DNA of 34,106 bases, taken from UHGV virus genome UHGV-0112930, one strand, 5' to 3'. Source of the stretch: a virus. Position numbers and translations under genes: made by a program. The notes under the pieces are model-generated. The model made no database searches. It saw only the letters and a list, made by a program, of their open reading frames with translations, and had not been told where the DNA came from. Positions 5,715-34,095 of this stretch are shown here, in pieces. Position 1 is the stretch's first letter. Every line of letters begins with the position of its first letter.

Positions 5715-6887
5715 TTACGCGCTGACCTGGCTGGCGAAATTCACCAGGTACTGATCGGTGATGCGCTGACGCAACATCAGGTTTTCAAGTGGCGGCACTG
5801 GCGTGTAGTCGTAGTCGATGGTGAGTTTTCCGGCTTTCAGAGTGTCTTTGTCGTTCACCGACTCGTCCAGCCAGCAATCACCACCAATGAGATACCCCTG
5901 ACTGACCAGGCTGCGCATTTTGGCGCGGATGCCCTCGATAATGTCGCGCGCCAGCGACGGGTTCAGCGGTTTGTCCACTGCCCACATGTGCGCTTCTGCC
6001 ATCGTGTCCGTCAGCACCTGCGCCGTGCGGGTGTAGTTTTCGAAGGCAAAAAGCGGATCATCGCTCAGACAGCGGGAACCCCAGAAGCGGAAACCATCCT
6101 TGCGCACAAGCGTGGTGACGTCGTTCTGGTTAAGCAGTCCCGCATCGGTTGCCGGGTCCTGCAGATCCCAGAACACATCAGCAGAAATTCCGGTGACACC
6201 GTTCACGCCCACGTTGGACAGGCTTTTGTGCCATCCGGTCTGCTCATCAATTTTAGCGCGCAGACCGAGCGCACGAGCGGTGGCATATGCCGTTGCTTCG
6301 GCATTCAGCACCGTGTCCCAGCCAGTAAAGTCAGGCCAGATAAGCATCCCTTCGCGCTGGCTGAAGTTTTCACGGTAAGTGATCGCCTCCTGTACCGTCT
6401 TGCAGCCATACGCTGACAGGTAAGCAAACCCACGCAGGCTTTGCGCCACGCTCAGCAACTCAGTCGCAACGGCTTTGTTATCGTGACCAGGTACGCCGAG
6501 AATGCGCGGTTTAACGCCGAGCTGTGTCTGGGCAGATAACAGGGCTTTCATGCCTGTTTTTTTACCTTCAGCGGTCACTGCGCCGATGATATTGGTCGTG
6601 GTTTCTTCTTCCGTTTCCCCCTGCGGCACACGCACAACAACGGTCACGGGTTTTGCCTGGTCAGCGATGGCATCCAGCGAACGGGCCAGCGTGCCAGACT
6701 CACCCGCTTTACCGCTGGCGGTCAGCACATCAGTGATCAGCACGGGTTTATTAAGAGGAAACATTTTTGCATCGGCATCATCGCCCGTGCAGACCATACC
6801 CACGATGGCGGTGCTCACCGTGGTAATGGATCGGGTGCCTTCGTTGACTTCAACAACGCGCACCCCGTGGTGGTAATCCTGAGCCAT
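5715..6887 (-). CDS. FI: Contractile tail sheath protein (P2 gpFI-like)
   Basis: 390-aa ORF; translation recognised as myovirus sheath; first gene of the F operon. Confidence 0.9.
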
Positions 6888-21807: not shown

Positions 21808-21839
21808 CGACAATATGTTCGCTGAACAGTAAAATATCA

Positions 21840-21866
21840 AGAAGGCCTCTTACAAGGCCTTCTTTT
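21840..21866. terminator. Bidirectional rho-independent terminator between convergent Q and the 582-aa cargo gene
   Basis: Hairpin agaaggcc-tcttacaa-ggccttct (8-bp stem) followed by TTTT on the plus strand, and by a moderately T-rich run on the minus strand. Confidence 0.55.
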
Positions 21867-21868
21867 AG

Positions 21869-23617
21869 TTAGAATGCGGATTTGATTTTTTTCTCAAATG
21901 CCTCATATACAGGCTGGTTCATTTGGGCCGTTGCAGTAATAAGCTGTGAAAAATTTGATATACAATCTTTAACTTTTGTAGGACTTTTCAACCCTCCTTC
22001 AACCAGTGCAGGCAGCAACTGATTACTTAAAGCCAGACACACATCTACAATTGGCTCCCAAATACTTTCAGCCTGAGAAGGAGAGACTGTACTTCCAAAC
22101 GAAACTCTAAATAAATTAGGAACGGGACGGCCCAAAAAGTTTTCCAAACATTCGGCAATAGCCGAGCACAATAAAGGTATTGAACCACGATGCCTGAGAT
22201 ATCCCAATTGAGCGCTATCATTTTTTGAAAGAGTATCTTTCTTTGCCAAAGCTATTTTCTTGTTCTCAATACACCGCATGAGAGAATACGCACAAACAAT
22301 ATGTGAAGCTTTTGTACTGTCATTAAAAATCTTAGAATAATGAGAGTCATTAGTCCAAATTGCAGATCGCTGATTATAAGCTACCGTCGGCTCTCCATGG
22401 AAACTCATCAAAGCTTGACCAACAGTATAAGAAGGCAGTAGATTAGTTTTTCGACGAATGACACTTTCAGCACCTCCTCGTCTTCCTCCATCATATTCAG
22501 CATCAGGAATAGAAGCAAATTCATTTTTAAGTCGTTTTTGAATTTTGTCTGTGCTTCTGAAATCAGATGCTTCAACTTTATTCTGACTGTTATTATACTG
22601 AATTATATTCTGAATTAGATCAGCATCCGCATCTTTGACTTTTATAAATCTAGCTTGGACTTTAACTGATTCTGGAGGTAATCGTGGCAGCGTTCCTAAA
22701 GCACCTGTTGTCTGTGCTCCATTAACTATTGACATCCCTCTGATTTCAAGATTCTTTGATGCTTCATTGAATTTATATTCATGAACCAAAACAGTTACGC
22801 CATTATTGTATGCCCAAAATTCTGATGCTGAATTTTCCGCACTGTTACGGATACCATTATTGATATTTGAATCAGATGACCTTGATCCAAGGTAGTCTCT
22901 AACATTTGCTGAAAATATTTTTAATTTATGCTTTTTGTACGCTCTAGCTAAATCTCTTCCCTGAATGGTAGTACAGAATGCATTCCAATTATCTCCTTTT
23001 ATTTCGTAGCCACCATCACTGACCTTAATATTGAAAATCTCATCAACCAGTATTGGTGATAGTGATTCACTATACCATTCCGTCAACTTTTCAGTGCCTA
23101 CCTCCATTGCATGCACTTGTATTTTAGCATCTTCAAAATCATGTTTTAAAATAGTTGTTGCTGTCTGCTGAACCGTAATTAGCTCTTGAGCCACATTTGT
23201 TGAAGATGGTAAGTTATGAACATACCAAACGTACAGAGTTTTAATTTTCCCTTGTTTGATTGATGTCCGTATCTGTTGAGCAGAAGATTTTATTCTATCG
23301 GGTACATCATGCAAATCTCTTTGCAGAAGCCATGCTAAAGCAATATTAAGATCACTCGCTTTATTTGCTGGAGCTTCCTGTCTATCTTTGCTTGAGAAAT
23401 AGCATTGAGCAAGTACAGCAAATTCTTCTTCTTCATTAATATACACAAGGTCACATTTCTTATCGTCATGTCCATCGGTAATGGACTCTGCTGCGACACT
23501 ATCAATGTCATCAATTCTAAAATGTAATGCTAACGCAAACAAAGCCAGTCCATTATCACCATACGATTTCAAATCTTCTCTTGCAGAATAGGCTTGGTTC
23601 CAGGTACTCATTATCAC
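21869..23617 (-). CDS. Large uncharacterised cargo protein (582 aa), candidate anti-phage / abortive-infection-type protein
   Basis: Long uninterrupted ORF in AT-rich DNA, unlike the GC-rich phage core, inserted between the Q terminator and the cos site. No P2 structural counterpart at this position. Contains NVRDYLG, EFWAYNNGVT and IVNGAQTT motifs. Confidence 0.7.
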   Translation of the reverse strand: MIMSTWNQAYSAREDLKSYGDNGLALFALALHFRIDDIDSVAAESITDGHDDKKCDLVYINEEEEFAVLAQCYFSSKDRQEAPANKASDLNIALAWLLQRDLHDVPDRIKSSAQQIRTSIKQGKIKTLYVWYVHNLPSSTNVAQELITVQQTATTILKHDFEDAKIQVHAMEVGTEKLTEWYSESLSPILVDEIFNIKVSDGGYEIKGDNWNAFCTTIQGRDLARAYKKHKLKIFSANVRDYLGSRSSDSNINNGIRNSAENSASEFWAYNNGVTVLVHEYKFNEASKNLEIRGMSIVNGAQTTGALGTLPRLPPESVKVQARFIKVKDADADLIQNIIQYNNSQNKVEASDFRSTDKIQKRLKNEFASIPDAEYDGGRRGGAESVIRRKTNLLPSYTVGQALMSFHGEPTVAYNQRSAIWTNDSHYSKIFNDSTKASHIVCAYSLMRCIENKKIALAKKDTLSKNDSAQLGYLRHRGSIPLLCSAIAECLENFLGRPVPNLFRVSFGSTVSPSQAESIWEPIVDVCLALSNQLLPALVEGGLKSPTKVKDCISNFSQLITATAQMNQPVYEAFEKKIKSAF

Positions 23618-23694
23618 TCCTTAGTAATAAAGTTTTAGCGAAGGTTATCTCTAAGAAGGTACATTTTCAATTCCATTTATCCCTCCAGCGCGCG

Positions 23695-23713
23695 CTCGTA
23701 TCCCCGCCACGCC
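23695..23713 (-). other. Putative cos site (cohesive-end sequence, 186/P2-like)
   Basis: Reverse complement reads GGCGTGGCGGGGATACGAG; the first 13 nt equal the phage 186 cohesive end GGCGTGGCGGGGA as remembered. Orientation matches Q being the cos-proximal gene. Confidence 0.5.
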
Positions 23714-23762
23714 TGCCCGCTTTATGTAGTGGTTTTCATGCACCTGCATGATCTACGCAAAA

Positions 23763-23784
23763 GCCCGCCAGAACTGGCGGGCCT
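23763..23784 (-). terminator. Possible rho-independent terminator (minus strand) downstream of the lipoprotein gene
   Basis: Hairpin gcccgccag-aa-ctggcgggc followed on the minus strand by TTTTG. Confidence 0.4.
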
Positions 23785-23886
23785 TAACACAAAAGATCCT
23801 CAAACGATCATGCGATCTCATGCAGCATAGACATGCGCGTTTATGCAGAATGTGCAAAATCGTAACATACTCAGTAAGCGTGAAAC

Positions 23887-24564
23887 CTAGAACGTGACAG
23901 CCTTGTCAAAGCCAGAAATAATTGTATAAGAAATAGACGAGTTATCAGCCTTGTTCACTTTGAACTTGGCACCTTTGTAAGCGATAACATCACTTCCCTT
24001 AGAATCTACAGAAAAATCTGTTGTAAATGCTGCACGAGCCATATCGTTTGCAAATTCACGATAGGTGAACTTCATTACACCGCCTGCATTTCCATTGTAT
24101 TCGATAGTCTTAACCAATGAATTACTCACTCGACACAGCCCATCAGGAACACGTTTGATAGAAATTTCTGATGCAGTATAAGAAGTGCCATTTGGCGGTG
24201 ATATCTCATTTTTTGCAGCATCGTAGCTAACATAATCAACATAGTTACCGATTTGCCCATAGAGATTTTTTAACGCAACAGCTTGAGGGTTATGATAATT
24301 GCGGTAAATTCCATTCCCCTCACTGCAATATGTACCAGCAGCGATAGAAGACAATGCACCATTAGCCGCACCAAGTTCTAGTACGTCCGTTTTAAATCCA
24401 GTAGCAGATGTGATAATGGGATCGCCCATGTAGGCGGTAGCACTTTGCCCAATAGCTGGCTTCACCACTTCAATAGCAGTGATATTTCGGTTAGAAGCAT
24501 GTGGCACGCAACCAGTTAGGATTACAGCAAGAGATATTGGTAACGCTACATTATTAATTTTCAT
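23887..24564 (-). CDS. Lipoprotein of unknown function (225 aa), phage cargo
   Basis: Start taken at MKINNVALPISLAVILTGC (lipobox LTGC) rather than the extended ORF start at 24618, which would run through an upstream terminator hairpin. AT-rich gene between cos and the SOS module. Confidence 0.7.
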   Translation of the reverse strand: MKINNVALPISLAVILTGCVPHASNRNITAIEVVKPAIGQSATAYMGDPIITSATGFKTDVLELGAANGALSSIAAGTYCSEGNGIYRNYHNPQAVALKNLYGQIGNYVDYVSYDAAKNEISPPNGTSYTASEISIKRVPDGLCRVSNSLVKTIEYNGNAGGVMKFTYREFANDMARAAFTTDFSVDSKGSDVIAYKGAKFKVNKADNSSISYTIISGFDKAVTF

Positions 24565-24598
24565 TTTTAGCCTATTATTCTTTTCTTGACAAAAAACA

Positions 24599-24623
24599 AG
24601 GCGATATCTGATTGACATCGCCT
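24599..24623 (-). terminator. Rho-independent terminator downstream of the dinI-like gene
   Basis: Hairpin aggcgat-(11 nt loop)-atcgcct followed on the minus strand by TGTTTTTT. Confidence 0.5.
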
Positions 24624-24677
24624 CTCACTCATATGTAACCCTTTTTGATTAGTAAAAACAAGCGTCTATTGACAAAA

Positions 24678-24911
24678 TCAATGCAGCCAGCTGTCGTCTT
24701 CCCACACCTTCTGCAAAATTTTCATCACTTGTTTTCTTTCTTCGTCCAGTTGCAGTCCGGTCAGTTCCACACCGTTAGAGCTACCTTTACGGATACGGAT
24801 TACCGTTTTGGGATACAGGGGGCGCAGATTGCGGTAAAGCTCGGATTCAAGGGCGTCCAGGGTAGACTGGCTAATCTTCTGCTCTTTATCGATCATTATT
24901 TCAATGCGCAT
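24678..24911 (-). CDS. DinI-like damage-inducible protein
   Basis: MRIEIMIDKEQKISQSTLDALESELYRNLRPLYPKTVIRIRKGSSNGVELTGLQLDEERKQVMKILQKVWEDDSWLH resembles E. coli DinI (MRIEVTIAK...ISEILQETWESADDWF). Start at the internal ATG, preceded by GAGGTG. Confidence 0.85.
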   Translation of the reverse strand: MRIEIMIDKEQKISQSTLDALESELYRNLRPLYPKTVIRIRKGSSNGVELTGLQLDEERKQVMKILQKVWEDDSWLH

Positions 24912-24921
24912 AAAAGTCACC

Positions 24922-25110
24922 TCAGCTGATGACATCCATTGAGCGGTTGTATTCGTGGCTTCTGATTTTTGCCATGAGTTCATCTGTCAGTTCAGAAACC
25001 CACTGCAGAGCCAGCCCCTTCTCTTCATCACTACACTCACTAGCCGCTACAAGCTTAAGAAAAAAATCAATGCGCTGAAGCTTCAAAGACTCCAAAAAAT
25101 AGTCCTGCAT
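24922..25110 (-). CDS. Small protein (62 aa) co-transcribed with the dinI-like gene, candidate Tum-like antirepressor
   Basis: ORF with strong SD AGGAGGA 5 nt upstream; stop 10 nt before the dinI-like start; LexA box in its promoter. Confidence 0.6.
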   Translation of the reverse strand: MQDYFLESLKLQRIDFFLKLVAASECSDEEKGLALQWVSELTDELMAKIRSHEYNRSMDVIS

Positions 25111-25151: not shown

Positions 25152-25171
25152 CACTGTTTATATTTACAGTA
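25152..25171 (-). promoter_or_regulatory. LexA (SOS) box overlapping the promoter of the 62-aa/dinI-like operon
   Basis: cactgtttatatttacagta contains CTGT-N8-ACAG with an AT-rich spacer, close to the consensus TACTGTATATATATACAGTA; it overlaps a TATACT -10-like hexamer on the minus strand. Confidence 0.7.
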
Positions 25172-25264
25172 TATAATAATCTTACTGATGTAAAACGTTT
25201 TTTTTACGCTTATCAGCCTGATATGCCTGGTATTATTAAGAGCACGAATTGTTAACCAGCGTAA

Positions 25265-27679
25265 TTAATACAGGTTCCGCCACTTATCATCTTCCTGCAA
25301 ACGCTGGTTCCGATAGAAGATACGCAGGCCTGCTCCTGACGGAATACTGCCGCCGCGAAGGAGTAAATCGACCTCTTTCTCGCTGCCATCAAATCCTCTG
25401 GACTTCAGTTCATAGACGAGCTGCTGTCGTTGATGGTCTGTAATTCGCTGTTTGTAGTCTCTACGCCGTTTCGGTTTCACCAGGCGTAACCTTGCAGCCA
25501 GTTCCCGGCGCTCTTTTTTGTTCATACAGTGCAGGTAATCGTGCAACTCCTTGTCATCCATGCGGGTGATATCCGTTCTGGTATCCCCATCAGCTGATTT
25601 GTCTTTCCCTTGTTGGTACAAATTTTCAGCAAGGGGACAGTTATTGCCACGAGTCCAAGGGGCGCAAGCGCCCTGGTCGGCTACCGCCTCCTGAACGTCA
25701 ACGGCCTTACGAACCATTTTCCACTTCACTGCATGAGTGCAGATCTTGCCCTCTGCAATGGGTGACCAGATGCCATAAATACGAATGCCGTGATCGCCAT
25801 AGGCGGTCGGCTCTTCGTTGATTTCATAAGCGGTTCTGATAAGGTGATATTTACGGGGAACCAGTACGCCGCCCTGCTTCATGATGTAGGTGGCAAAACA
25901 ACCAGCATCAGCAGCAGCCAGGATGGCATCAAGGCGCGGGTCATCCAGTATCGGCGCACCTGCTTTTTTGTCACCCTGTTGCCTTGCCGCCTGACCAGCC
26001 AGCAAGCGAAGTTCACGGTAAGCCTGACGTCCCGGAATACCAAAGAAGCGGAACTGCTGAACACGATGCAGAGACGCCCAGGCATTAACGTATTCGGCGT
26101 TATCACGCAGGGATTTACCCGTTTCCTTGCTGATCTCGCCAGCCAGACCACGCCCGTCAATGTTCTTACTGATGTATTTCGCGATGTAGCTTGTCGGTGT
26201 TCCTTTGCGCGGGTTAATCAGCTCAGACTTAAAGCGTGGCCCCGTGTTGTTGCCCAGCTCCTCGCGGTCTACACGGATGGCAAACTTACGCAGTAATGCA
26301 GTGATGGCGCGGCGGTCTTTTTTACGCATGAAGCACATGAGATGCCAGTGCACAGTACCGTCATGGTGCGGCTCAGCCACCCGCACGCCATACCAGCGCA
26401 ACCCGGTTTTGTGCATTGCCTTACGAAATGCAGCAAACATGCCGACCATATAATCGCTGCTTTGTCTTACCGTCGCATTTGTCCAGGTCGGGTTGGGTCT
26501 GCCGTTGTTGAGCGTGGAATGGAAACGTGACGGACAGGTGATAGTGTAGAAAACGGCGCAGTCACCGCGCATTTCCGCGATAAGCTCCAGACCTTTAACA
26601 CAGGCCATCATCTCATTGCGGCGATGCGCAGGGTTGCTGCTGCTGGCGTTTACCACATCCTCCATGTCCAGCGTGTCGCCGTCTTCGTTCACCAGTTCAT
26701 GAGAACGGAAAAACTCCAGCGACTTACGGCGCTGCTCACGTTTATGCATCACGGCTTCATAGCTGACATAGGGAGATGCTTTTTTGCTGACCAGGCAGAC
26801 AGCACGCAACTGCTCTTCCCGCCATTCGCAACGCATCTTCCATAATTTCCGATACCACCAGTCGGCGCACAACATACGCGCCAGCGAACCCGGAATGAGT
26901 TCATAGGGCACGGGTTTACGGCGGTTTCTTTTCCGACGGAGTTGCTCAAACGCAGGTGGGATGACATCCAGACGCAGGGTTTCCGCCGCCACCTTTTCCC
27001 ATGTCTTGCGGATTTCTTCTGGCTTAACGTCATCGGTGGCATACAAATCGCCACAAGCTGCATCAAGGCACATGCTCATATGCGCAGCTACCAGGGTGGA
27101 CAGGCGTTTCACCTGATCCTGACTCATTTCAGGCAGGATCAGCAGGCCCTCCAGCCCTTGATGGCTTGCCATAAAACGGAAAGAAGCAGACAGCTGACTG
27201 TCACGTACACAATCCAGTCGCTCCAGACATGGCTTAATCGTCTCACGCAAATAGCGGGAATAAGCCTTTGGCCTGCCCAGGCTGCTGAAGTATTCGATAC
27301 GTTGCATCAGCGGCTTGCTAATATGGGTGGGCTGGGCGCTGACGTCCGCCAGAATGACCATGTCCGGGTTAAAACGCTGCTGTTCATGCGCCAGCTTTGC
27401 CCGGCTAATGAGCTTATCCTGCTCCATTTCGCGCTGGACAGGATCACGAGATTCATTAAAGAAATAACGCTCCCAGACCTGCTCACTCAGTGCATCGCGG
27501 CGCAGCTGTTCCTGCTCATTATCGGCAGCGTACAAAGTGATCAGGTTTAAAAGTGCAGACTCCGGAGCAACTTCCGCCGGGTCCAGATAAGGGTTAATGG
27601 CCTTTTTCGGGCCGTTCCATGAAAATGCTGCAGCGGCCTCGTTAAAGCCGCTAGAGTTGCTCATATCGTCATGACTCAT
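25265..27679 (-). CDS. A: Replication initiation endonuclease A (P2/186 gpA-like rolling-circle initiator)
   Basis: 804-aa ORF with HUH-type motif [11 protein letters not shown] and tyrosine pair [10 protein letters not shown]; translation recognised as P2/186 A-like. Confidence 0.9.
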
Positions 27680-28533
27680 ACACGCACCTCGTACACAGCA
27701 GAACTATCCACGCCACACGAAGGATCAAATCCCACCCAGCAGCGCGCCCCGGAAACAGCAATGATTTCTGTTGCAGATTTACTCTCGCCAGCCGACACGC
27801 CGATGCTGCGTTTTGCCTTGATGTAGTGGTGAGTGAAATTTCGATACAGCGAACGGATCAGGGATGTGTCACTGTTAGAAACAATGACTGGATGACCTTC
27901 TGATGATCGATATTCAAGAACAGATGCCAGGTGATACTGGTCATCTTCAGTGAAGCCGTCAGTGTGATAGCCGGAAAACGTACCGTCATAAGGCGGATCG
28001 CAATACACCACATCCCCCACCTGCAGCATCGCCAGCGTTTCATCAAAGCTGGCGCAGATAAACGTTGCTCGCTGGGCTTTCTCTGCAAATGCGCGAATTT
28101 CTTTTTCAGGGAAATACGGATTTTTATAATTACCGTATGGAATGTTGAAATGCCCGCTCTTGTTATAACGACATAACCCACGGTAACCATGACGATTGAG
28201 ATACAGGAAATATACCGCTTTCATGAAATCAGTAATTTCAGTGGAGTAATTAAACTCCTGCCTTATGTTGTAATAAGCCACCTCCCTGTTTGCTTCCTCA
28301 AATAAAGCTCTGGCACGAGATATAAACGCCTCGCAATCAGCAGCAACCTTTTTATAGAGGTTGATTAAATCAGGATTAATATCCGCAACAAGATAGCTGG
28401 GGTAATCCGTCTCCATCATCACAGCACAGGAACCCGCGAAAGGTTCAACCAGTCGCGGGCCAGCAGGAAGATGTTTTTTCAGTTCGGACATAATGGCAGT
28501 TTTATTACCCGCCCATTTCAGGATGGTGCTCAT
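27676..28533 (-). CDS. DNA adenine methyltransferase (Dam-like, N6-adenine MTase)
   Basis: Motifs [32 protein letters not shown]; strong resemblance to E. coli Dam. Start taken at [11 protein letters not shown]; stop overlaps the A start by 4 nt. Confidence 0.85.
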
Positions 28534-28832
28534 ACAGCACCTCCTGCAATAACATATCCTAAAGCTTCTAATGGGGTTAATGGGCGAATTGATAGCATCA
28601 CCCATTGTTCTGAAACTGCCATGACGTCATTAACCGGAAGCACATGAGAGATAACAGCGGCCCATTCCCTACCCGTAAATACGCCATGCTTCCATTCGCA
28701 AAGAGAAAGAACATCACCAACTTTATAACCACGATCGTCTTTACGAAGTTCAGCCGTCTTTTGACCTGCAACCACAGCGTTGAAATACTTAGGTGCAATT
28801 TTTAATTGATGGATACGCACTGCCCTTGTCAT
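28530..28832 (-). CDS. DUF3850 / ASCH-like small protein
   Basis: [47 protein letters not shown] matches the remembered DUF3850 pattern; start taken at the internal ATG. Confidence 0.6.
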
Positions 28833-34077: not shown

Positions 34078-34095
34078 TGTGTACAAATGTACACA
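34078..34095. promoter_or_regulatory. Perfect palindromic candidate operator upstream of the TetR-family gene
   Basis: TGTGTACA-AA-TGTACACA, 22 bp upstream of the TetR start codon. Confidence 0.4.

Follow-up and report, generated by a model that had tools for sequence, protein, structure and literature searches.

A predicted outer-membrane lipoprotein gene between the SOS operon and cos of a P2-like phage genome and its possible role against incoming phages

The window analysed here, the whole 34,106-nucleotide stretch of the UHGV virus genome UHGV-0112930, is a P2-like (Peduoviridae) phage genome of the Fels-2/DuoHS type. On its minus strand, between a LexA-controlled operon and the cohesive-end site (cos), lies a gene for a lipoprotein of 225 amino acids (aa), which is the subject of this report. 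The gene itself was already known as a hypothetical one. What is new is its placement beside cos in an SOS operon of the type known from phage 186, its status as constant flank of a variable hotspot, the size and structural novelty of the family to which it belongs, and the recurrence of that family in moron slots known for exclusion genes. The unit consists of the following features.

25152..25194, minus strand: p95-like SOS promoter with -35 TTTACA (25194-25189), a 17-nt spacer, -10 TACTGT (25171-25166) and the LexA box TACTGTAAATATAAACAGTG overlapping the -10
24922..25110, minus strand: TumA-like open reading frame (ORF) of 62 aa, first gene of the SOS operon and putative antirepressor half of Tum (phrog_698, E 6e-38; same position as PsP3 tumA and Fels-2 STM2728)
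24678..24911, minus strand: DinI-family (TumB-like) gene (Pfam DinI, E 9e-23; annotated as DinI family in Fels-2, Escherichia coli HS and E. coli ATCC 8739)
24588..24624, minus strand: intergenic hairpin with U-tract, GAGGCGAUGUC-AAUCA-GAUAUCGCCUU GUUUUUUGU, a candidate partial terminator or attenuator and counterpart of t95a in phage 186
23887..24564, minus strand: lipoprotein gene, 225 aa; signal peptide with lipobox in residues 1-19 (24508-24564), then a tether, then a predicted all-beta domain
about 23756-23786, minus strand: GC-rich hairpin GGCCCGCCAG-UUCU-GGCGGGCUUUU, which ends the lipoprotein transcript and is part of the conserved cos-proximal block
23686..23755, minus strand: cos region, placed by alignment to the right end of 186 and to the annotated P2 cosL

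The ORF starts with the ATG at 24564 and stops with the TAG at 23887-23889; its position and length agree exactly with a first-pass annotation, which had been made from the sequence without database searches. The N-terminus of the product reads MKINNVALPISLAVILTGC. A longer reading of 243 aa is possible from an upstream ATG at 24618, and the Fels-2 record uses that start. The extension, however, falls within the RNA hairpin and is not conserved in relatives (locus L041 has an in-frame TAA six codons upstream), and the NCBI PGAP annotation starts the gene at the ATG of the 225-aa form. For these reasons the 243-aa start was rejected and the 225-aa form is taken as the gene. In a codon analysis against relatives at dS 0.24-2.7 the ratio of nonsynonymous to synonymous substitutions (dN/dS) is 0.05-0.07, and the gene is thus under strong purifying selection. 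Together with an invariant lipobox this makes it far more than a chance ORF.

The lipoprotein signal, which had been proposed from the N-terminus, is well founded. It ends in the lipobox LTGC, which conforms to the pattern [LVI][ASTVI][GAS]C, and 22 homologues all share G18 and C19. Among 62 distant family members the lipid-bearing cysteine is present in 58, and a lipobox recognised by regular expression in 48. The residue at position +2 is valine; aspartate, the inner-membrane retention signal of Enterobacteriaceae, stands at this position in none of the 48 lipobox-bearing members. Cys80 and Cys144 are invariant in the close homologues, and further cysteines are even in number (2 or 4) in 39 of the 48. 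The lipobox, the lack of aspartate at +2 and the even cysteine count fit an exported, disulfide-bonded protein which would be sent to the outer membrane by Lol. From the +2 rule we infer the outer membrane as its location, and that the protein is an outer-membrane lipoprotein can be assumed with high confidence.

Structure prediction, one of the checks proposed along with the first-pass annotation, gave an all-beta fold. In the AlphaFold2 model a disordered tether of about 10 residues (residues ~20-30) leads into a domain with about 17 strands; the mean predicted local distance difference test score (pLDDT) is 80 and exceeds 90 across most of the core. Foldseek found no structural relative of the model in PDB or BFVD at E<=1e-3, and the best E-value in a profile search against PDB sequences was 0.26. 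The best conserved part is the C-terminal third with the motif Y156-x-G...Y168-R-E-F...R177...D187...Y196-K-G-A...N208...I-x-Y213...F. Y156, G158, Y168, E170, R177, D187, K197, A199, N208, Y213 and F219 are conserved in at least 90% of the 62 diverse members, and these near-invariant residues suggest that the C-terminal third may form a conserved binding or active site.

That the mature domain belongs to no recognisable family had been noted before, and Pfam (E<=0.1), NCBIfam and PADLOC are indeed all blank for the lipoprotein. A polysaccharide-lyase match in NCBIfam was discarded, as it reached 13.9 bits against a cut-off of 366, and the Pfam scan of the 62 diverse family members gave single marginal matches only. 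The single PHROG match is phrog_1353, a group of unknown function, which covers residues 1-223 of 225 (E 3.1e-105). A protein of 100% identity, WP_000700647 (ECHS_RS25360, formerly EcHS_A0921), is encoded by the P2-like prophage DuoHS of E. coli HS, and 24 Klebsiella phage and prophage records likewise match at 100%; identity is 99.1% to Fels-2 STM2726 and 98.7% to the counterpart in Salmonella phage RE-2010. Carriers are P2-like prophages of clinical Klebsiella pneumoniae of the sequence types ST11, ST258, ST437 and ST512 as well as the Salmonella phages Fels-2 and RE-2010, and 50 of 5426 complete E. coli genomes (~1%) contain the gene. Databases label it as hypothetical and the defence-system catalogues have no entry for it. 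No literature was found on WP_000700647, and STM2726 was found in a single paper, a microarray study with the mutagen MX (PMC2225428).

The family reaches far beyond these phages. A profile built from the close homologues was searched against 1.84 billion representatives (clusters at 50% identity) and revealed 2434 representatives at E<=1e-3, 1256 of them at E<=1e-10. Nearly all are lipoproteins of 210-240 residues, and all members with a source name are labelled hypothetical. According to a scan of one genome per species the family occurs in Gamma-, Beta- and Alphaproteobacteria, Desulfobacterota, Nitrospirota, Campylobacterota, Planctomycetota, Verrucomicrobiota and Bacteroidota. Most copies are chromosomal and lie in ordinary gene neighbourhoods, and no neighbour gene is conserved across 46 species-level family loci.

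A subset of the family resides on mobile elements, namely P2-like prophages, siphophages, phage-plasmid-like replicons and recombinase islands. In siphophages of Acinetobacter and Moraxella and in prophages of Rouxiella, Acinetobacter, Pseudocitrobacter and Erwinia the homologue stands directly upstream of the tape-measure gene. These siphophage-type homologues (loci L004, L005, L089, L092, L100 and L114) share 24-27% identity with the window protein, have a lipobox of their own and lie between the tail tube or chaperone gene and the tape-measure gene; in Acinetobacter phage PhabP_R1 (L004, 4091-5907) a pair of DUF4258 toxin and XRE antitoxin precedes the homologue. Elsewhere, E. coli IncFIB replicons of ~95-108 kb, in which a phage terminase and further phage genes are also present, contain a homologue as a single insert, and in Klebsiella and its relatives homologues mark the ends of small islands with serine recombinases. 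In the latter case (L057, 1897-9345; L055; L071-L074) homologues of 54-57% identity form the edge of AT-rich islands with serine recombinases, a putative AbiC and defence-like hypothetical genes, and L057 carries in addition a second small lipoprotein gene (119 aa, LLTGC) on the opposite strand 1.2 kb upstream. On the Vibrio parahaemolyticus plasmid NZ_CP010886 (L066, 3447-4678) a homologue of 28% identity starts at the last base of a gene for a 185-aa "porin family protein". This overlap suggests a two-gene outer-membrane operon; none of the 46 other genomes examined shows the pairing.

The genes upstream of the lipoprotein form the SOS module that the first-pass annotation had recognised. 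The LexA core CTGT-N8-ACAG at 25154-25169, which overlaps the -10, is the sole perfect one in the window, and it is followed by the TumA-like and DinI ORFs. In Fels-2 and PsP3 tum exists as two halves, one for the antirepressor and one for DinI (PMC3121763), which matches the arrangement of the 62-codon ORF and dinI seen here. The terminators that had been postulated on both sides of the lipoprotein gene were found as well. The upstream hairpin at 24624-24588 has an 11-bp stem (dG -16.6 kcal/mol, z -3.8) and is weaker than t95a of phage 186 (-21.7). It is kept in the lineage of 88% identity, where one C:G pair has become U:A (compensatory) and one U:A has become U:G. The downstream hairpin at ~23785-23760 (dG -22.5 kcal/mol, z -3.9) aligns with the cos-proximal palindrome of 186.

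It had been concluded from these terminators that the gene is likely expressed in the lysogen. This does not follow: the upstream hairpin ends only ~24 bp short of the ATG, and the hairpin itself occupies the position of t95a. A scan and reading by eye revealed no credible sigma-70 promoter between dinI and the lipoprotein gene which could serve the ATG, nor is there an Ogr-type late-promoter dyad (TGT-N12-ACA) near the gene. Of the hallmarks of a moron, a terminator and a low GC content are thus present in the lineage of the window, and a promoter of its own was not found. Relatives of 79% identity (L043-L046) lack the t95a-like hairpin and have instead a sigma-70 promoter, TTGATG-17-TATGAT, ~60-100 bp upstream of the ATG (locus ~5900-5945), which is conserved between L043 and L045. 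Therefore the regulation of the lipoprotein differs between lineages, and judged from these upstream regions it seems to have been switched between read-through and an independent promoter.

The closest parallel to this layout is found in phage 186. According to its record (NC_001317; Brumby et al. 1996) p95 is the SOS-dependent promoter of the SOS operon, with a LexA site on the -10 TACTGT, and is followed by tum, t95a (a partial terminator of the p95 transcript), orf97, t95b and the genome end. The GenBank note in the same record (NC_001317) states that plasmid expression of Orf97, a protein of 243 aa, "blocks 186 infection". Slot and layout are the same in the window, where a promoter with LexA box, tum/dinI, a hairpin, an ORF of ~225-243 codons for an envelope protein and a terminator follow each other, with cos ~0.2-0.3 kb further on. 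The two proteins differ in that Orf97 has N-terminal transmembrane segments, as read from its sequence, whereas the window protein has a lipobox signal, and in that the infection-blocking phenotype is on record for Orf97 only.

Depending on the lineage of Peduoviridae, the slot behind tum or tumB is occupied by orf97 (L123, 2105-2836; 33 phage records, with Vibrio phage VHML at 44% identity), by PsP3 gp37 and gp38 (L124, 2249-3009) or by the lipoprotein gene. The slot thus acts as a second, smaller variable slot within the SOS operon. The idea that it always holds envelope proteins was rejected, since PsP3 gp37 and gp38 look cytoplasmic.

Expression data are available for the Fels-2 counterpart. 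In Salmonella Typhimurium TA100 treated with the mutagen MX the predicted operon STM2726-STM2727-STM2728 was up as a whole, with changes of 14.8-fold (lowest p) and 2.6-fold (highest p) (PMC2225428); TA100 is a derivative of LT2 and presumably retains Fels-2. This response is compatible with strong induction of the promoter and attenuated read-through, and equally with general prophage induction. Because the gene has no recognised promoter of its own and the Fels-2 operon rises after the mutagen, SOS-timed read-through is likelier than constitutive expression in the lysogen. We therefore regard it as rather probable that the lipoprotein gene stands last in the LexA-controlled tum operon, is attenuated by a terminator and is expressed mainly on induction.

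The position next to cos, which had been assumed before, is correct. The 13-nt core of cos, GGCGTGGCGGGGA, is found at 23701-23713 on the minus strand and is unique in the window. The bases just before the core align with the end of the linear 186 genome, and from the core onward the alignment is with the annotated cosL of P2. The complete 19-mers of P2 and 186 were not found in the window with up to three mismatches; it was the 13-nt core together with the alignment that located cos. A 19-nt cohesive end, GGCGTGGCGGGGATACGAG, is predicted at 23713-23695; the DNA would be cut between 23714 and 23713. This point lies ~173 bp downstream of the stop codon, and therefore the lipoprotein gene is the last one at the right end of the packaged DNA. 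Since cos separates it from the cargo, the packaged DNA would carry the cargo at its left end and the SOS operon with the lipoprotein gene at its right end.

This position has to be seen in relation to the hotspot that is delimited by the following genes, the last of which is the neighbour of the unit and lies outside of it.

25265-27679, minus strand: replication endonuclease gpA, 804 aa
19.0-21.8 kb, plus strand: gpP and gpQ
21869..23617, minus strand: AIPR/AbiU-like abortive-infection gene (Pfam AIPR 2e-34, PADLOC AbiU 1e-34, phrog_1841)

The cos-proximal interval between gpA and gpQ has been described as a defence hotspot of P2-like phages (Rousset et al. 2022, PMC9122126; PMC13586616). 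WP_000700647 appears in Table S5A of that study (PMC9122126) as an unnamed hypothetical, for example in loci such as "hypothetical + hypothetical + AIPR + DinI". The lipoprotein gene does lie inside the interval that defines the hotspot; it differs from the genes for which the hotspot is known in being a constant flank and not a swapped cassette. Among 58 loci from IMG/VR the order gpA-orf62-dinI-lipoprotein is kept in nearly all P2-like ones, with lipoproteins 96-100% identical and gpA 81-97%. The distance from the lipoprotein gene to gpQ in these loci ranges from 0.38 kb, where cargo is absent (L034 and L051), to 3.6 kb. DNA homology to phages with other cargo ends at ~23686, just past cos, which places the hotspot junction within ~10-30 bp of the cohesive end. 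The constant flank consists of tumA, dinI, the lipoprotein gene and cos, and the exchangeable cassette lies between cos and gpQ. The AT-rich setting that the first-pass annotation had pointed out is real, with a GC content of ~0.42 at 23.5-25.0 kb versus 0.52-0.64 in the structural genes. Its description of the gene as cargo has to be revised, however, because gene, terminator and cos are the conserved flank and the variable cargo begins beyond cos.

The cargo itself is diverse. In place of the AIPR/AbiU-like gene of the window, the slot between cos and gpQ holds an AIPR gene of 25% identity in RE-2010, a gene for a 565-aa hypothetical protein in Fels-2, a reverse-transcriptase pair in 4LV2017, three hypothetical genes in E. 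coli ATCC 8739 and a 463-aa hypothetical in E. coli HS; it is empty in L034 and L051.

What might the lipoprotein do? In the explanation which we tentatively prefer, although it falls somewhat short of being probable, it is an SOS-timed outer-membrane lipoprotein that hinders incoming phage. The protein would be exported through its Lgt/LspA-type signal and the predicted Lol pathway and would expose, on a short tether, a disulfide-containing all-beta domain either to the cell surface or to the periplasm. While the lysogen is quiet, LexA would hold the operon low and the hairpin at 24624-24588 would stop most of the residual transcripts. Upon DNA damage LexA would be cleaved, the p95-like promoter would fire and TumA and DinI would be made. 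A fraction of the transcripts would then read through the hairpin, so that the lipoprotein would arrive in the envelope as induced lytic growth sets in. At that site it might hinder an incoming phage after adsorption, for example when the tail penetrates or the genome crosses the periplasm; masking of a receptor is less expected. That infection is limited at such a step is the more doubtful part of this explanation, for which we see a possibility of slightly lower rank than for the whole.

Two positional analogies speak for a block on infection. The same operon slot is occupied in 186 by Orf97, a non-homologous envelope protein which blocks 186 infection, and the siphophage homologues, including those of at least four prophages of other genera, occupy the slot between chaperone and tape-measure gene in which HK97 has its exclusion protein gp15. 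HK97 gp15, which goes back to the chromosomal YebO family, prevents the genome from entering the cell (PMC3594210). As in the case of the window lipoprotein, a widespread chromosomal family of envelope proteins was captured by phages (PMC3594210). In contrast to the lipoprotein, gp15 is an inner-membrane protein of 62 aa, unrelated in sequence and expressed from the prophage, and its exclusion activity has been demonstrated.

Several points weigh against a block on incoming phage. All of the functional support is positional. The lipoprotein shows no homology to Orf97 (BLASTP E 3.8); phage 186 is absent from the tblastn matches of the lipoprotein, and the phages carrying the lipoprotein are absent among the Orf97 matches listed (15 of 33). 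The cytoplasmic-looking genes of PsP3 indicate that the slot behind tum does not dictate function. As regards the SOS timing, the report on the MX response gives two extreme fold-changes only, without assigning them to genes (PMC2225428), and a microarray of this kind cannot separate read-through from prophage induction or from a rise in copy number. The upstream hairpin might terminate completely, and the gene might be served by a weak promoter which was not recognised. The breadth of the family, its ordinary chromosomal settings, the lack of a partner gene and the purifying selection fit a general envelope function better than a factor in an arms race. Finally, capsule-less DuoHS lysogens still bind their own virions and suffer lysis from without, and lysis debris traps progeny (PMC13622650), so that no block on self-adsorption is evident. 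Because lysogens are immune via CI, these assays would miss a block that acts after adsorption, and they would also miss a factor that is made only in induced cells. Superinfection exclusion, which had been proposed as one of two roles in the first-pass annotation, hence gains from the slots of Orf97 and HK97 gp15, that is by position only, while its version with receptor masking directed at the own phage is disfavoured by the DuoHS data.

Foremost among the rival explanations is a function in the envelope that protects the host and has nothing to do with phage exclusion; it would be of lysogenic-conversion or housekeeping type and help the carrier cell to survive as lambda Bor or F TraT do. 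In such a case the C-terminal site would bind a universal envelope ligand, inhibit a lysozyme, a colicin or an effector of the type VI secretion system, or act against serum. The very large, phylum-spanning family with its 2434 representatives, most copies of which have ordinary chromosomal neighbours, speaks for it, as do the (near-)invariant residues Y168, E170, R177, D187, K197 and N208, which suggest a ligand site, the dN/dS of ~0.05 with no diversification, the constitutive-type promoter in the relatives of 79% identity and the frequency of the gene in prophages of clinical Klebsiella, Salmonella and E. coli. Bor/Iss and TraT are likewise outer-membrane lipoproteins encoded by accessory genes of mobile elements, where they confer serum resistance or surface exclusion, and TraT with ~223 aa in its mature form is of similar size. 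They are expressed constitutively from prophage or plasmid, though, while the window gene stands behind a LexA-controlled operon, and membership in the TraT or Bor families was rejected since neither the protein (E<=0.1) nor the 62 family members gave a Pfam match to them. More generally the lipoprotein neither resembles Bor, TraT or lysozyme inhibitors nor matches any Pfam family or any structure searched; expression at SOS induction, just before lysis, would be odd for a host-fitness factor, and the recurrent capture into moron slots with exclusion genes points to conflict between phages. On balance we consider a purely host-protective role somewhat unlikely. A masking of receptors, after the manner of Llp of T5 and Cor of phi80 and N15, is improbable. 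It would block adsorption, protect induced cells and spare progeny from debris ("anti-Kronos"), and it has in its favour that Llp and Cor too are phage-encoded, predicted outer-membrane lipoproteins and that Llp is made during lytic growth, so that the proposed SOS timing would suit a similar protection of the progeny at burst. Llp and Cor, however, have ~60-80 residues, block FhuA and are encoded near receptor-binding or tail-fibre genes, whereas the mature window protein is far larger (~206 residues), resembles them neither in sequence nor in fold and is encoded at the replication/cos end, away from the tail-fibre region and not beside a receptor-binding-protein gene. Moreover, phages of Klebsiella, Salmonella and E. 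coli carry the protein with 99-100% conservation, although the surface receptors of these hosts presumably differ. Inactivation of FhuA by Cor is documented (PMC11436027); the receptor of DuoHS in turn is not a protein, it is the O9 O-antigen (PMC13622650, a preprint of September 2026), and capsule-less DuoHS lysogens and their debris bind virions heavily despite a prophage that carries the gene.

The remaining alternatives are still less probable. An accessory role in lysis or release, in which the protein would act on the outer membrane and time the disruption of the envelope in the induced lytic cycle, is very improbable. SOS-controlled colicin operons do have a lysis lipoprotein as their terminator-distal gene, and the SOS promoter, partial terminator and distal lipoprotein of the window resemble that layout; the predicted timing, induction, would agree as well. 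Yet holin, lysozyme, LysB and LysC are already present in the related prophage, the gene lies outside the late/lysis cluster and lacks an Ogr-type late promoter, size and fold are unlike those of spanins or colicin release proteins, and chromosomal members of the family occur without phage context. An outer-membrane spanin (Rz1/LysC) in particular was rejected, as LysB and LysC are annotated elsewhere in the nearly identical DuoHS and the gene has 225 codons and sits at the cos end. The least credible proposal makes the lipoprotein the sensor or effector partner of the adjacent AIPR/AbiU-like gene in a two-gene anti-phage system. Both genes are adjacent, on the same strand and within the gpA-gpQ defence hotspot, but a strong terminator, cos and ~270 bp lie between them, they end up at opposite ends of the packaged DNA, and the lipoprotein stays constant while its neighbour varies or is absent (most of the 58 loci have other cargo or none). 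Because the lipoprotein is kept without AIPR and the cassette lies beyond cos, such a system is ruled out; the lack of co-occurrence effectively refutes it.

The explanation as an SOS-timed factor against incoming phage can be extended to the family as a whole. The window gene would then be the founding phage example of a hitherto unrecognised, phylum-spanning lipoprotein family with a fold absent from PDB, in which a single gene provides an envelope anti-phage factor that stops penetration by the tail or passage of the genome at the inner face of the outer membrane; the family would have been captured repeatedly into moron slots (tum operon/cos end of P2-like phages, siphophage slot, phage-plasmids and recombinase islands), and the SOS timing would seal the induced host of a P2-like phage against competitors while the progeny form. 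Taken as one joint claim we regard this as rather unlikely.

Envelope proteins of prophages decide which phages enter a lysogen and thereby bear on phage typing and therapy in Klebsiella, Salmonella and E. coli. If the lipoprotein is an exclusion factor, it would stand for a novel family of very large size and novel fold, and for a new logic of exclusion which is switched on by SOS instead of being constitutive. Otherwise the view of the P2 hotspot is still corrected, with tumA, dinI, lipoprotein gene and cos as constant flank and the cassette between cos and gpQ, and a conserved family of envelope lipoproteins is still flagged as deserving a Pfam entry. DuoHS of E. coli HS, which encodes the identical protein and for which genetics and single-virion imaging are established, offers a tractable test system.

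Some further features were recorded in the window. The gap of 61 bp between the convergent gpQ and AIPR genes contains a GC-rich hairpin, AAGAAGGCCTCTTACAAGGCCTTCTT, at 21839-21864, with a T-run on the minus strand, that of the AIPR gene; it looks like a terminator shared by both genes. Directly upstream of gpA an ORF of 309 aa (27676-28605, minus strand) matches in position the DNA adenine methylase gene of Fels-2, RE-2010 and E. coli HS. That methylase is annotated as similar to the Dam protein of retron Ec67; the ORF is another accessory gene in the early operon. The scan for TGT-N12-ACA also found a perfect 18-bp palindrome, TGTGTACAAATGTACACA, at 34078-34095, ~10 bp from the end of the window, which may be an operator, an att-proximal site or a chance occurrence.

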